In this document: piece after piece, positions 9,801 through 51,300 of the stretch
How positions within the stretch are numbered: position 1 is the stretch's first letter
Layout: each line of letters starts with the position of its first letter
NCBI GenBank assembly: GCA_947503885.1
Contig: CANNFD010000011.1
Coordinates: 9,310 to 73,309, forward strand
Length of the DNA stretch: 64,000 nucleotides
Source: an uncultured Olleya sp.
GTDB taxonomy: Bacteria; Bacteroidota; Bacteroidia; Flavobacteriales; Flavobacteriaceae
Direction of reading: 5' to 3'
Program-made: the position numbers and the translations under genes
The notes under the pieces: model-generated
What the model was told of the DNA's origin: nothing
Seen by the model: the letters and a program-made list of their open reading frames with translations, nothing else
Database searches by the model: none

Positions 9801-9964
9801 TTATTATAGCTTTTGGCTATTAGCGGTTTGCCTCTAGCACTTAATGTTGTGATTTGTTATTGTATAACTTAAGTACTAAAATACAAATTGTATCCTGTTT
9901 AAAAAAGCTGAAACTATAGTAATTTTATATTTCAAAATATGGTTTTACTATAACGCTAGGTTTT

Positions 9965-10053
9965 GCGTTAGCGATAATAGTAGCATCCTTTTTTTGCTGC
10001 CATATATGGCGAAAAAAGATATAACGGATAGCGCGACCCTTGTGGTAACGCCC
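9965..10053 (-). ncRNA. structured intergenic element resembling the Flavo-1 RNA / Flavobacteriaceae interspersed repeat
   Basis: Minus strand GGGCGTTACCACAAGGGTCGCGCTATCCG...AAAAGGATGCTACTATTATCGCTAACGC; terminal GCGTTA/TAACGC pairing plus an inner hairpin; family assignment is from memory, not a search. Confidence 0.55.
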
Positions 10054-47270: not shown

Positions 47271-47290
47271 TGGACTTCTCTAATTAAAGT

Positions 47291-47380
47291 TACGTCGTTG
47301 TACAAATCTATATTTTTACAAAAACCGACTAACAGAATTGGACAATTGACAAATAAATCAAACGTTTTTTATCAGTGACA
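47291..47380 (+). repeat. degenerate copy R0 of the ~100-bp promoter-like repeat
   Basis: TACGTCGTTGTAC...ACAAAAACCGACTAAC...TTGGACAATTGAC...TTTTTTATCA aligns with 50245-50332. Confidence 0.55.
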
Positions 47381-47534
47381 CAATTAACAAACTAGCCAAT
47401 TACTATTCAATACAAACCATAACTTACACACCTTCAAACACTAAAAGTCATTTTTTTTGTGTCGCAGAGCCCAAAACCTACATACGTGCTAAACAACTAC
47501 TCCTTTTAGGAAGATTATTTAACATAAAGCTAAT

Positions 47535-47600
47535 TTATAGATAGTCTAACAAAAACAAATTAGATTTGTTGAACGATTTGCAAAAAACATGAAACAATTT
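47535..47600 (+). repeat. degenerate copy R1 of the ~100-bp repeat, with a perfect TAGATTTG -7 element at 47561-47568
   Basis: TATAGATAGTCTAACAAAAAC...TTTGTTGAACGATTTGCAAAAAACATGAAAC. Confidence 0.6.
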
Positions 47601-47671
47601 TATATTTTTTAATACATTTGATGCAAATTTTTAAAAAAGAACACAAACAATAATCTATATATTTAATTTTA

Positions 47672-48415
47672 ATGAAAACTTACATTTCCCTTTTTATTTT
47701 TAGCATTTTTACCAATATGATGATAGCCCAAGTAGGAATTGGTACTACAGAGCCAAAAGCCGCATTGGACATTACTTCAGAAGATTCAGGTTTATTAATT
47801 CCTCGTGTTGCACTTAGCGATATAACGGATAGCACCACGGTTAGGACACCATCGGATTCCGATCCTGACGTAGAGGTTAGCACATTGGTTTATAATGATG
47901 GGACCGGAGGCTTACAACCTGCTGGTTTTTATTATTGGGAAGGTAGCAAGTGGATTCAATTTGCATCAACCGAGAAGCAAGTACATGTAGGTAAATTCAA
48001 GATAACAGCTTCTGGGATCACTACTATTGCTGGATTACCATTTAAACCAAAAAGTATCGAGTTTAAAGCATATGCTAATATTGAAGATTACAATTTAAAT
48101 AGCGATAATGGTGTAAATAACAATAACTCAGGATTACAAAACTACTTTGGATACATGCAAGGTTATGCTCAAAACACTTCTGGTACTATTGAGCAGCAAG
48201 TAATAGCAGGTGGTGCAAGTGCCAATTCTGTAAATGACCATTCACGTTACGCTTCGGACACTAATTGTATCGGAGTACGTTATGCAAACCAAAACGGAGA
48301 TTCGTTAGGATTAACAAATGCTTCACTTACCTCTTTTAACGCAGATGGTTTTACATTAAATGTAAGCAATTTTACTGATGGCTTAGTTGTAATTTATACC
48401 GCTTATAAGTATTAA
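47672..48415 (+). CDS. secreted hypothetical protein (Flavobacteriaceae QVGIGT family)
   Basis: Signal peptide, then QVGIGTTEPKAALDITS..SGLLIPRVAL and GFYYWEGSKW. Confidence 0.8.
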   Translation: MKTYISLFIFSIFTNMMIAQVGIGTTEPKAALDITSEDSGLLIPRVALSDITDSTTVRTPSDSDPDVEVSTLVYNDGTGGLQPAGFYYWEGSKWIQFASTEKQVHVGKFKITASGITTIAGLPFKPKSIEFKAYANIEDYNLNSDNGVNNNNSGLQNYFGYMQGYAQNTSGTIEQQVIAGGASANSVNDHSRYASDTNCIGVRYANQNGDSLGLTNASLTSFNADGFTLNVSNFTDGLVVIYTAYKY

Positions 48416-48532
48416 TAATATAAGTAAGCCTAAATTAAAATGTTTTTTTAATAAGCACATCTTAAAATGTAAAACAAAAGCATTATATAATAGTTAGCAT
48501 TATGCTTAAAAATTAATGTTATATAACATAAA

Positions 48533-48592
48533 AACACAAACAAAAAACGCTTTCAAATATCTGAAGGCGTTTTTTAGTATAATAAAGTTTAA
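48533..48592. terminator. copy A of the argS terminator/3' region
   Basis: AACACAAACAAAAAACGCTTTCAAATATCTGAAGGCGTTTTTTAGTATAATAAAGTTTAA, near-identical to 51241-51298. Confidence 0.8.
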
Positions 48593-48895
48593 AACTGAAA
48601 AACGTTTTGTCCAACCACAACTTTTAAAGAATTATCATCTCCGGAAAAAACACCTGCACCTTTCCGGTTAGACAAACTCGTGTAAGAGGGATAGTTTTAC
48701 ACTGTACTTTATCAATTTAGTCATTTAAAAACTAATTGTAATAAGGTAAAAAAGAACCCCTCCCAACCAACTTATGATTAATTCCTAGAGTTAAAATCAA
48801 AAAAAATCAGAAAATATGTATACATTTGATAGAGCTATAATCGATTGAATATCAACAACTAACACTAGCATTAATTGAGATTAAAATAAAATATT

Positions 48896-49261
48896 ATGAA
48901 ACATTTAAAATCCAATTTAATACTGACTTTATTTATTTTTAGCTTTTTGGTTTGTCAATCCTGTAAAAGTGATGATGATTCTCAAGCTCTGGTTGAAATT
49001 TGTAATGACGGAATAGACAATGATGGTGATGGGTTTACAGATTGTGAGGATGCTGACTGTGTTTCAGCCTCAAATTGTGTAATAGAAATTTGTAACGACG
49101 GTATTGACAATGACGGTGATGGGTTTACAGATTGTGATGATGATGATTGTGATTCAGACTCCAACTGTGGTGTTGAAATTTGTAACGACGGTATTGACAA
49201 TGATGGGGATGGATTTACAGATTGTGATGATGATGACTGTACTGCTGATCCAAGTTGTTAA
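48896..49261 (+). CDS. small lipoprotein made of three Cys/Asp-rich putative metal-binding repeats (MopE-like)
   Basis: Lipobox CQSC-KSDDD; 3 x EICNDGIDNDGDGFTDC(E/D)D(A/D)DC. Confidence 0.85.
   Translation: MKHLKSNLILTLFIFSFLVCQSCKSDDDSQALVEICNDGIDNDGDGFTDCEDADCVSASNCVIEICNDGIDNDGDGFTDCDDDDCDSDSNCGVEICNDGIDNDGDGFTDCDDDDCTADPSC
48995..49258 (+). repeat. three tandem 90-nt coding repeats
   Basis: GAAATTTGTAA starts at 48995, 49085 and 49175. Confidence 0.9.
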
Positions 49262-49426
49262 CATAGCCAATACAAAGTTTAAAAACAATTGCTGTTTTTT
49301 ACATATATAATGGCGTATCAAGTTTGCTACGTCTAAATTTTATATATAAAACCCTAGCACACAAACCTACAACGTCACTTTGACTAAAGCTTGTTTTACT
49401 AATAGCCCTTTTTAATATAATATAAT

Positions 49427-49473
49427 AACGCTTTCAAATACTTGAAGGCGTTTTTAGTATAGTAACGTTTTAA
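49427..49473. terminator. copy B of the argS terminator/3' region
   Basis: AACGCTTTCAAATACTTGAAGGCGTTTTTAGTATAGTAACGTTTTAA. Confidence 0.78.
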
Positions 49474-49519
49474 TCTTAAAATGTTTTATTCTGCTACAAC
49501 TATCTACTAGGTTGTGTAA

Positions 49520-49620
49520 AAAAATTTACGTAGTTCTACGTATAGTTTATCTAACATTAAACAACTAATTTCGTTGACCGATTGATAAAAACATTGAAAC
49601 GATTTTTTATCATCGAAATA
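49520..49620 (+). repeat. copy R2 of the ~100-bp promoter-like repeat
   Basis: TACGTAGTTCTAC...TAATTTCGTTGACCGATTGATAAAAACATTGAA...TTTTTTATCATCGAAATA. Confidence 0.85.
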
Positions 49621-49659
49621 ATTACTCGGTAAATTATAAATTGAAATAAAATATAAAAT

Positions 49660-49869
49660 ATGACATTGTTAATAGTAGTAATAGTAGTTGGATTGATTTG
49701 GTATGGAATAAAAATTGGATTTAATATTGGTTGTATAATCGGAGGAATCATTGGAGTATTTATTGGAGGGAGTTTGGGTGTAGCTGGTGGAGGCGGAGCA
49801 TCAAACGGGTGGATTATTTTCGGCGCTATCGGATTTGTTGTTGGGGGATTAATTGCAAATAAAAATTAA
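49660..49869 (+). CDS. small glycine-rich membrane protein
   Basis: 69 aa, hydrophobic GxxxG-rich helices, ATG after an A/T-rich leader. Confidence 0.65.
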   Translation: MTLLIVVIVVGLIWYGIKIGFNIGCIIGGIIGVFIGGSLGVAGGGGASNGWIIFGAIGFVVGGLIANKN

Positions 49870-50044
49870 TATAAAAAATATTATAGGAATAGTAATTCAA
49901 TTTGGATTAGCGAATTATAAAAGAAGTTCAGAGGAATTATTTGAAAATGGCTCAGAATTTATGACAAATCCTACTGTTATAGGAGTTTTGACTCTTTTGA
50001 GTTGGGTTATAATGGTAATCGGAATCGTAAGTTTTTTCTATTAA
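49853..50044 (+). pseudogene. probable fragment of a membrane-protein gene
   Basis: 63 aa, overlaps the upstream gene by 17 nt with a poor N-terminus; hydrophobic C-terminal helix; followed by stop-riddled sequence. Confidence 0.4.
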
Positions 50045-50124
50045 TAAATATTTATGAGTTAACTCGGAATTGAACAATTAAAGCGGAAGAATTAAAACTT
50101 GTTCATTCAGATGTCTCGTAACAG

Positions 50125-50196
50125 TTTGTAACAAAATTTATATAATTTATTGCTAGTTCTATCCTATTTACAAAAGTCCTCGCAGATTTACTATTT
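50125..50196 (+). mobile_element. decayed left half of an attC-like Flavobacteriaceae cassette repeat
   Basis: TTTGTAACAAAATTTATATAATTTATTGCTAGTTCTATCCTATTTACAAAAGTCCTCGCAGATTT; resembles a repeat family I recall from Flavobacteriaceae; right arm absent. Confidence 0.45.
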
Positions 50197-50239
50197 AACC
50201 ACTTTACATATTTACATCTTTAAAAAGGGTATTTATAAC

Positions 50240-50340
50240 AAATCTACGTAGTTGTACTTATAGATTTCTTAACAAAAATCTACTAACTTCGTTGAACGAT
50301 TGATAAAAAACATTGAAGCTTTTTTTTTATCATCGAAATA
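50240..50340 (+). repeat. copy R3 of the ~100-bp promoter-like repeat
   Basis: TACGTAGTTGTAC...TAACTTCGTTGAACGATTGATAAAAAACATTGAA...TTTTTTATCATCGAAATA. Confidence 0.85.
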
Positions 50341-50381
50341 TTGGCAATAATTAAAAAACAAAATAAAACTGCACATTAAAA

Positions 50382-50735
50382 ATGACAAATGACTATCAAG
50401 ATTACAAAATACTTTTAAACAACTACACTTCTTCTTACATTAGTGAATATGGAACAAAAAGTGCTAAAAAGACCATAGAAACAATTCAAAAATCAAAACA
50501 CTCGATTAACTTATTGCATCAAAGCGCAACAAAAGGTTTTGTGCCAACTGTCGGTGATTTTAATTCTTTTGTCCTTAGTAATTTATCGTTGAGCTTTGCA
50601 AAAAAAGCAAAAATTAGATTTGCTTCAATAATCTTATTTAATCATTGGCATAATGATGTTAATGTTGAATTACAACTTTTATCAGAATATGAAGTTATTT
50701 CTTTGTTTAACAAAATCCTTGAAAAAACAATATAA
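50382..50735 (+). CDS. hypothetical protein (cassette ORF 1)
   Basis: 117 aa, ATG after an A-rich leader, no recognisable motif. Confidence 0.7.
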   Translation: MTNDYQDYKILLNNYTSSYISEYGTKSAKKTIETIQKSKHSINLLHQSATKGFVPTVGDFNSFVLSNLSLSFAKKAKIRFASIILFNHWHNDVNVELQLLSEYEVISLFNKILEKTI

Positions 50736-50799
50736 AATTATTTAAAAATAGCCTACTATTTAAAATCAGTAGATTAACTCAAATACTTAGAAAATAATT

Positions 50800-51051
50800 A
50801 TGGATATAAATGAATTGAAAACAGGAATTATCGATGGAATGTCAAAAATTGTAGTTGATGATTTCAGTAAAAGTGAATATAAAGGAACACCTCTTGAAAG
50901 TATGGCTATCATTGAATCATTAAATTACTCATCAAAATGGTACACAAATTGGCTATTGGAAAATAAAATTGATTTTAAGATTTCTGAGGAACAAATTGAT
51001 GATATAATAAAAGATTGTTATACAAAGACGTATGATAAATTTTTAGAATAA
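50800..51051 (+). CDS. hypothetical acidic protein (cassette ORF 2)
   Basis: 83 aa, no recognisable motif. Confidence 0.7.
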   Translation: MDINELKTGIIDGMSKIVVDDFSKSEYKGTPLESMAIIESLNYSSKWYTNWLLENKIDFKISEEQIDDIIKDCYTKTYDKFLE

Positions 51052-51087
51052 TTATATAGTTCTACAGTAATGGTAACCGTATAAAAC

Positions 51088-51216
51088 TATTGCCAACAAC
51101 GTATATAAAAAATAGCGATTTTAGTGCTTAAACGAAAGATAAATAATAAAATAAAGGTCTGTAATAAACCGAAAAGTTAGTGTTTAAAATCCGCTACTTT
51201 TCATATACCAGACCTT
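51088..51216 (+). mobile_element. attC-like imperfect inverted repeat
   Basis: Arms 51101-51123 and 51185-51208: two A/C mismatches (G:T on the bottom strand) and one extrahelical base; GCCAAC at the left end. Confidence 0.65.
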
Positions 51217-51240
51217 TCAACGAAAAGTCAAAATCTATCT

Positions 51241-51298
51241 AACACAAAAAAAAACGCTTTCAATAACTTGAAAGCGTTTTTAGTATAATAAAGTTTAA
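51241..51298. terminator. argS terminator (copy C, native position)
   Basis: AAAACGCTTTCAA-TAAC-TTGAAAGCGTTTT, 2 nt from the argS stop codon. Confidence 0.85.
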
Positions 51299-51300
51299 GC

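Follow-up and report, generated by a model that had tools for sequence, protein, structure and literature searches.

An imperfect palindrome lies in the 64,000-nt window analysed here (uncultured Olleya sp., assembly GCA_947503885.1, contig CANNFD010000011.1, positions 9,310-73,309 of the forward strand), and the initial annotation had read it as an attC-like substrate for a recombinase acting on single-stranded hairpins. This raises the question of whether the palindrome is such a site and, if so, to which system it belongs. Our answer is that the hairpin is very probably the recombination site, an analogue of attC, of a solitary two-gene cassette within an integron-like gene-capture system of marine Flavobacteriaceae. 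The genome holding the window comprises 3.04 Mb in 43 contigs, and the window is located on contig C11.

A search of the genome with the left end of the element returned partial matches that cluster on other contigs. By pattern search, 29 full copies of 121-128 nt were recovered, built on the plan AAC-N3-GTRTAWA...TATAC-N6-GTT, and these were used to construct a covariance model (R1). At a cut-off of 55 bits the model detects ~38 family copies in the Olleya genome. The window site (51087-51225, + strand) reaches 85.2 bits (E 6e-17), with no other strong match in the 64-kb window; decayed remnants were found at 50144-50244 and 49273-49389 only. The other copies are mostly spaced 0.4-2.6 kb apart, on a single strand and at contig ends (C1:495-506 kb, C8:0.5-5.8 kb, C19, C22, C23 and the end of C13), which looks like a long, repeat-rich array split by assembly. 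Every genome sampled from the same genus (10/10) carries attC-like sites, from 19 to more than 100 in each, and family sites are present in all 18 sampled members of the Flavobacteriaceae. Literature searches found no published description of this Flavobacteriaceae system. The low G+C content of the window (32%) and the many weak inverted repeats nearby would allow the palindrome to be a chance product of AT-rich intergenic DNA, but this is refuted by the strength of the match to the family model (85 bits, E 6e-17) and by an orthologous site that ends the same cassette on a metagenome contig (L054, see below); the probability we attach to it is practically nil.

Within the model match, the core of the site extends from AAC to TTT (51095-51217, +; 123 nt) and follows the layout found across the repeats, AAC-N3-(16-bp L stem)-centre-(L stem)-N6-GTT. 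All parts are given on the + strand. The R''-type outer box CTATTGCCAAC (51087-51097), with the core AAC at 51095-51097, is the reverse complement of the cassette start TTGGCAATA (50341-50349). It is followed by a 3-nt unpaired spacer, AAC (51098-51100), by the L''-type arm GTATATAAAAAATAGC (51101-51116), which forms the left half of the covarying 16-bp stem, and by a variable centre (51117-51192). The L'-type arm GCTACTTTTCATATAC (51193-51208) pairs with 51101-51116 and is separated by a 6-nt unpaired spacer, CAGACC (51209-51214), from the R' core position (51215-51217). In the Olleya genome the outer cores read AAC in 29/29 copies and GTT in 28/29, and both cores are also found in 84/84 copies of relatives; the window site has the AAC but reads TTT at the R' position, where the 28 other copies of this genome, the 84 copies of relatives and the orthologue have GTT.

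The two arms of the initial annotation, GTATATAAAAAATAGCGATTTTA (51101-51123) and TAAAATCCGCTACTTTTCATATAC (51185-51208), are present as described and also appear as a pair in the inverted-repeat listing of the window. They comprise the 16-bp stem and a 7-bp extension into the centre (51117-51123 with 51185-51192) that leaves one C bulged on the top strand. Both arm mismatches, at stem positions 7 and 12, can be read from the letters as A opposite C on the top strand and T·G on the bottom strand, and the asymmetry of the spacers was likewise confirmed, the left spacer being 3 nt and the right one 6 nt throughout the family. Two other features that had been singled out are not conserved. The single bulged base is real (an extra top-strand C at 51191 or 51192, hence a bottom-strand G) but is specific to the window copy; it falls outside the 16-bp stem, and other copies show an internal loop there or lack it; a bulge in the 16-bp stem is absent from most of the 29 own-genome copies compared, and what is conserved, in 28/29 of them, is an unpaired G (C on top) beside the stem, which forms an internal loop or junction in copies other than that of the window. 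Similarly, the direct repeat noted in the loop, TTAGTGCTTAAA (51121-51132) and TTAGTGTTTAAA (51178-51189), is present but not conserved, and its second copy is missing from the intact orthologue.

The attC-like reading would be refuted if homologous sites lacked compensatory changes. The inner 16-bp stem, GTRTATAnnnnATTGC / GCAACnnnnCATAYAC, does covary. Among the 29 own-genome copies, double changes occur at 8 of the 16 stem pairs, a score equalled by none of 500 shuffles, and shifting the stem partner by 1-3 columns abolishes pairing. The same was observed in 118 further sites, taken from arrays in ten other genomes of several genera, with double changes at 13 of the 16 pairs (again 0/500 shuffles). 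Between the window site and its L054 orthologue, compensatory double changes are seen at three stem pairs (positions 6, 10 and 14). Thus, the homologues covary and the attC-like reading is supported.

The mismatches were also found to be distributed unequally between the strands. A opposite C on the top strand occurs at position 7 in 29/29 own-genome copies, at position 12 in 25/29 and at position 8 in 12/29. When all non-Watson-Crick cells are counted, 67 form a wobble on the bottom strand only and one on the top strand only, and in 84 sites of other genomes the corresponding counts are 203 and 0. The latter count carries an ascertainment bias, since the model that collected the extra sites was partly built on the strand asymmetry and favours sites that have it. 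The two mismatches of the window site are therefore a hallmark of the whole repeat family (67:1 here, 203:0 elsewhere). With DNA parameters, the bottom-strand stem is the more stable one in 29/29 copies (mean -14.8 versus -11.1 kcal/mol) and the more probable one in 19/29; little stability is gained from G·T pairs in DNA. The spacers are invariant in length in all copies (3 nt left, 6 nt right). The strand is inferred to be marked by fixed positions that are A·C on top and G·T on the bottom, in place of extrahelical stem bases.

For the window site itself, the bottom-strand folding bias inferred earlier was borne out in part. When both strands were folded with RNA parameters, the long hairpin formed on the bottom strand only, whereas with DNA parameters it was the minimum free energy structure on neither strand. 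A local hairpin formed by AAAGGTCTG and CAGACCTTT (51153-51161 with 51209-51217) competes with it in DNA folding. When the L stem is enforced under DNA parameters, the bottom strand reaches -9.2 kcal/mol versus -7.3 kcal/mol for the top, and the stem probability is 0.005 versus 0.0003, a ~16-fold difference, although low even on the bottom.

Since the site follows directly on the stop codon of the second cassette ORF and precedes the argS terminator, and since members of the family always lie 3' of same-strand ORFs, it could instead act within the cassette mRNA, as a terminator, stabiliser or attenuator, through a fold of the top-strand RNA. However, RNA folding of the top strand of the window site does not yield the long hairpin, and the conserved non-canonical positions are A opposite C on precisely the mRNA strand. 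No T-run follows the stem, the true terminator being located at 51250-51281, and the swapped outer boxes and homology breakpoints described below would be left unexplained. A transcript-level role is thus considered very unlikely. The bottom-strand RNA, in turn, does form the long hairpin (-25.5 kcal/mol, z -2.6), and G·U pairs are normal in RNA, as would suit an antisense small RNA or a structured RNA gene read from that strand. An Rfam scan found no known RNA family at the window site, however, no promoter is evident, and a variable centre, swapped boxes and ~40 to 100 copies per genome arranged in arrays are unlike an RNA gene, so that this possibility appears exceedingly slim.

A recombination site of cassettes is expected to leave a signature not only within each copy but also between neighbouring copies. 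In the arrays, the 10-11 nt that follow one site (GTTxxxxxxx) and those that precede the next (xxxxxxxAAC) are reverse complements of each other, with 9-10 of 11 matching, and this rule holds for all pairs of consecutive sites in the C1, C6, C8, C13, C19 and C22 arrays. As far as sequence can tell, this box swap is the signature of integron cassettes, in which each unit would hold both halves of the outer stem, divided by a crossover between the G and the TT of the core. The cassettes are filled by same-strand ORFs. Array cargo includes a C5 DNA methylase (Dcm), AbiGi, a SLATT effector, ParE, a Gp49/HigB-like toxin, DUF3800 and an IS3 transposase, and is of the defence and toxin-antitoxin type; no T6SS immunity families were found in the cargo scanned.

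A palindromic, intergenic repeat of ~125 nt in many copies might equally be a selfish element of the REP or MITE type that is moved by a transposase, for instance by a RAYT-like enzyme of the Y1/HUH class acting on single-strand hairpins, and one weak Y1_Tnp fragment does occur in the genome. This match is the only one, however. It is partial (25 bits, profile positions 30-89 of 121, in a 108-aa frame at C9:2407-2583) and far from the arrays, so that the family, unlike REP/RAYT or IS200/IS605 elements, is not associated with a Y1/HUH transposase. Moreover, target duplications do not flank the copies, the copies have no terminal repeats that are theirs alone, the outer boxes form pairs that are part of the adjoining cassette, and the arrays are one-directional and headed by a tyrosine recombinase in several genera. 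We therefore give very little credence to this explanation. On the evidence set out against each, the terminator, MITE/REP, antisense RNA and chance-repeat explanations were all rejected.

Two further observations were made in the arrays. A 2.6-kb cassette on C1 (495254-497815) encodes a C5 cytosine DNA methylase (421 aa) and a 359-aa partner ORF, and is probably a complete restriction-modification unit carried as a cassette. Separately, two different array sites, C19:4476-4543 and C22:3418-3484, are broken at the same point of the left arm (after GTGTATA) by an identical sequence, CTAACCTTAATTCTCTC...AAACTTAAG, that reaches the contig ends in both. IS1111-attC elements are known to target attC sites in integrons, and by analogy the interrupting sequence looks like a multicopy insertion element that targets the hairpin sites.

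If the window hairpin is a cassette recombination site, the outer box predicts where its cassette begins. The box CTATTGCCAAC predicts a start of GTTGGCAATAG, and the window reads ATTGGCAATAA at 50340-50350. The start 9-mer occurs three times in 128 kb of strand, so a chance match in the right 1 kb has a probability of ~0.01. The cassette closed by the window site spans 875 nt (50341-51215, +) and contains two ORFs, both orphans: ORF 1 (50382-50735, +; 117 aa), which has 14 metagenomic homologue clusters, all hypothetical, and ORF 2 (50800-51051, +; 83 aa), which accompanies ORF 1 in the two other copies described below. Pfam and PADLOC returned nothing for these ORFs or their neighbours.

Copies of the same cassette were found in a genome of another genus (G103) and on the metagenome contig L054. 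In G103 the two ORFs share 91% and 84% amino-acid identity with those of the window, the cassette is solitary, and DNA homology starts exactly at (G)TTGGCAATAATT and fades within a decayed site. On L054 the cassette, at ~90% nucleotide identity, lies inside a true array. The upstream site there (86.9 bits) ends in GACCGTTG immediately before TTGGCAATAATT, and the downstream site (L054:4723-4862) is intact (106.9 bits) and ends in CTTATAC-ATAACC-G, with TTACAAG after the crossover point, followed by OLD-TOPRIM and UvrD genes. Homology between L054 and the window begins at TTGGCAATAA and ends at the spacer plus the G (L054) or T (window) that precedes TT. In both comparisons homology thus spans the unit from TTGGCAATAATT to this point, and no match exists at the congener locus. 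With an array copy elsewhere, a solitary copy in another genus, and homology that breaks at the predicted boundaries, the cassette is mobile, as inferred from these alignments.

The neighbour cassette on L054 (4970-8354; ENA ERZ25043458 NODE_1085) encodes an OLD-family ATPase-TOPRIM protein and a UvrD-like helicase, a pair that we take to be typical of the Gabija anti-phage system. More distant ORF 1 homologues, with 77% and 61% identity, were seen on the Logan contigs L057 (SRR23272315_7608) and L058 (SRR31053301_535), in phage-like or mobile-element modules that contain an HTH regulator, AAA_24 and DUF3871, and in L058 a tyrosine integrase. L058 also has weak family-site matches on both sides of the ORF 1 homologue.

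A cassette system is expected to be served by a recombinase. No canonical IntI was found, in that no protein of the genome matches TIGR02249 above the cut-off (best 203 versus 265 bits). The best match, C6:246641-247831 (+), is an intact 396-aa ORF that encodes a tyrosine recombinase of the Xer/IntI clade and is linked to an array: two cassettes lie 3' of it on the same strand, and their sites are at 248360 and 249059. The first of these cassettes begins with GTTATATGCA ~40 nt past the recombinase stop codon, within the palindrome CATATAAC-TA-GTTATATG, and this start agrees with the outer box of the first site, which makes this position, at C6 ~247855-247880, an attI-like junction. Sites just 3' of the recombinase and on the same strand were also observed in Olleya sp. 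R77988, O. aquimaris and two further genomes, G004 and G016, the last from another genus. The recombinase was found in 16 of the 18 sampled family-member genomes; its homologues, at 56-82% identity, occur in many Flavobacteriaceae genera, and weaker full-length homologues are spread across the phylum.

In integron biology, the IntI-specific domain is held to be what enables a tyrosine recombinase to use a folded, single-stranded attC site. The enzyme on C6 contains Phage_int_SAM_4 and Phage_integrase domains, has kept the catalytic R, H-x-x-R, H and Y, and carries an additional N-terminal stretch of ~100 aa. It scores 221 bits against NF040815, the NCBI 'XerA / integron integrase' model (cut-off 220), and matches the archaeal XerA structures 4a8e and 5hxy in one piece (145 bits), archaeal XerA and bacterial XerC-XerD being its best sequence matches. 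VchIntIA (2a3v) is matched in two pieces, with 16 residues in the recombinase where IntI4 has 59, and the IntI-specific insert is therefore considered to be lacking. Judged by these comparisons, the enzyme of the system is not IntI. Xer enzymes act on double-stranded 28-bp dif sites in the resolution of chromosome dimers. They are not linked to cassette arrays, unlike the enzyme described here; separate Xer-like genes are also present in the Olleya genome (C9, C10). The recombinase (C6) and the window site (C11) are on different contigs, and the action of this recombinase on the family sites is inferred and has not been shown.

The window cassette lies in the gap between a TonB-dependent receptor gene and argS (47271-51300), which measures 4.0 kb here. 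In congeners the same gap ranges from 12 nt (G008, an empty site) to between 1.7 and 9.3 kb in the others, with different genes in each. Six congener loci were examined and had neither the window cassette nor a strong family site; the cassette is hence not ancestral at this position. From the comparison of these loci, the gap appears as a hypervariable insertion hotspot. The 3' boundary of the inserted island is the argS terminator hairpin (51250-51281, -), duplicates of which are found at ~48540-48590 and 49421-49470, giving three copies of the terminator and its flank in the gap (the third at ~51245-51300). Upstream of the cassette, the left half of a truncated, older attC-like site of the main subfamily (50125-50205, +) ends a preceding small cassette (ORFs 49660-50044); the corresponding partial model match (50144-50244) reaches 19.7 bits (E 0.03).

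Between this remnant and the cassette lies R3 (50237-50340, +), a promoter-like element of ~100 nt that ends in a hairpin and is followed immediately by the cassette. Its sister copy, R2, is located at 49517-49625, with weaker copies at 47291-47380 and 47535-47600. The R elements share a TACGTAG-TTC-TACGTAT box, a TAACTTCG box and a terminal hairpin, CGAT(T)GATAAAAA...TTTTTATCATCG, and R2 and R3 each directly precede a small cassette. Other R copies are found at C1:434890 in the same genome and at the same locus in congeners that lack attC sites. Because there are only ~5-7 copies in the genome, and because the congener copies have no attC cassettes, R3 is not taken as a docking site; it is treated as a promoter-like neighbour and not as a proven att site. 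The first four bases of TTGGCAATA also occur in a related R element of the genome G005, and by that comparison alone the left boundary of the cassette is fixed only to within ~4 nt. Overall, inserted modules have accumulated in a small cluster between the receptor gene and argS, and this cluster is decaying.

Decay is also apparent in the window copy itself. The intact orthologue carries in its centre (L054:4750-4830) a hairpin, GATTTTCC-TTCG-GAAAATC, and the middle part of the window centre differs from it. Relative to this orthologue, the window site has lost the central hairpin, gained the second copy of the direct repeat, and has TTT in place of GTT. The crossover G is missing from both junctions of the window cassette, which read A on the left and T on the right; since neither retains it, one mutation must be assumed. 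T likewise occupies the right junction of the solitary G103 copy, which is decayed as well. Taken together, the G to T change in the core, the replaced centre, the competing hairpin and the low stem probability suggest that the cassette is probably fixed or poorly mobile. The window site is thus genuine, yet, judged by these features, it has probably ceased to serve as an efficient substrate.

In most parts of its anatomy the family resembles the attC sites of integrons, including those of sedentary chromosomal integrons (IntI, attI and attC; for instance Vibrio VCRs of ~125 nt; PMC2727003, PMC4889954). It forms an imperfect palindrome that closes a promoterless cassette on its 3' side, has AAC...GTT cores in the outer boxes (with TTT replacing GTT in the window site) and is of like size (121-128 nt), and it combines an unpaired, asymmetric spacer with a variable centre and an inner stem that is kept by structure and not by sequence. 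As in integrons, genes lie on the top strand while the bottom strand is predicted to fold better, outer-box halves are swapped between neighbours in a manner that implies a crossover between G and TT, and long, one-directional arrays carry defence and toxin-antitoxin cargo. There are also differences. The Flavobacteriaceae enzyme has no IntI-specific insert, falls below the TIGR02249 cut-off and has ~100 extra N-terminal residues; its gene is co-oriented with the array, with the insertion site ~40 nt after the stop codon; the outer boxes of the family are ~10 nt long; and the canonical extrahelical G and T of attC are not seen in the L stem, which has fixed G·T-only pairs on the bottom strand instead. 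Since two defining features (the IntI domain and the extrahelical bases) fail, the site is not filed as a classical attC. IntegronFinder surveys, which build on a definition of integrons that includes the IntI-specific domain, report hardly any integrons in Bacteroidetes (10.1101/2022.02.28.482270).

Two described arrangements come close to that of the window. A SALIN is a single attC site without an integron integrase, and cassettes can be inserted at attG (Loot et al., 10.1101/2022.09.11.507474). The window likewise contains a lone cassette with a single site, at a non-att place just 3' of a promoter-like element and with no array or recombinase near it, but it involves another recombinase and site family, there is no GWT-type target G at either junction, and the core is mutated to TTT. 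The second arrangement, rAID-1 of the Bacteroidales, consists of a XerD-like recombinase 5' of short genes in a co-oriented array, between which lie repetitive sequences that the authors called 'reminiscent of integrons' (Ross et al., 10.1101/471110); its definition requires an identity of 44% or more to BF9343_RS08045, the recombinase of B. fragilis, together with orphan T6SS immunity genes (10.1101/471110; 10.1101/2025.05.03.651265). It shares with the present system the phylum and the layout on C6, where the recombinase is 5' of at least two co-oriented genes with repetitive intergenic sequences, a layout that is repeated in relatives. The cargo, unlike that of rAID-1, consists here of restriction-modification, Abi, SLATT and toxin-antitoxin genes and orphans, and hairpin anatomy, strand bias and box swap are not described for rAID-1 in either paper (10.1101/471110; 10.1101/2025.05.03.651265). 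By analogy in layout, and with recombinase homology not compared, rAID-1 is the nearest described relative in the phylum.

How the system would work can be proposed only by inference; the strand that is bound, the place of the cut, the acting enzyme and single-strand recombination itself have not been shown. In the proposed mechanism, the recombinase would bind the folded bottom strand, although binding data are lacking, and strand choice would be set by the asymmetric 3/6-nt spacer together with those two or three stem positions at which only the bottom strand can pair. Cassettes would be excised through site-by-site recombination, for which there are no excision data, and would be inserted at the site beside the recombinase gene or, rarely, at secondary genomic sites. 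The window cassette may have landed in this way between the promoter-like element and the argS terminator, as an analogue of a SALIN at attG. A broader hypothesis, towards which we lean only slightly, is that cassettes throughout the Flavobacteriaceae, and probably the wider Bacteroidota, are moved by a true single-strand system based on bottom-strand hairpins, and that the enzyme running it is an Xer-like tyrosine recombinase devoid of the IntI-specific domain. Strand choice would then depend on fixed G·T-only pairs and the 3/6 spacer and not on extrahelical bases, solitary cassettes would represent seeding at secondary chromosomal sites, and the system would be either an independent invention of the integron principle or its ancestral form.

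In all ten genomes sampled from the genus, attC-like sites with the full cassette grammar and a bottom-strand bias thus accompany a recombinase without the IntI-specific domain. Should the mechanism be confirmed, the definition of the integron would widen, a natural experiment on how strand selection is encoded would become available, and marine flavobacteria would be seen to contain a large store of defence and orphan genes that has yet to be mined. The window locus provides a dated example of a cassette that left an array, settled, and then decayed at a chromosomal hotspot.

Two minor features of the window were also recorded. At 48896-49261, a 121-aa predicted lipoprotein without a Pfam match is encoded, which contains three near-identical repeats, EICNDGIDNDGDGFTDC(D/E)D.DC, and is rich in Asp and Cys. 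At 9960-10042, a Flavo-1 RNA (RF01705) was identified at 53 bits and is the sole Rfam family in the window.
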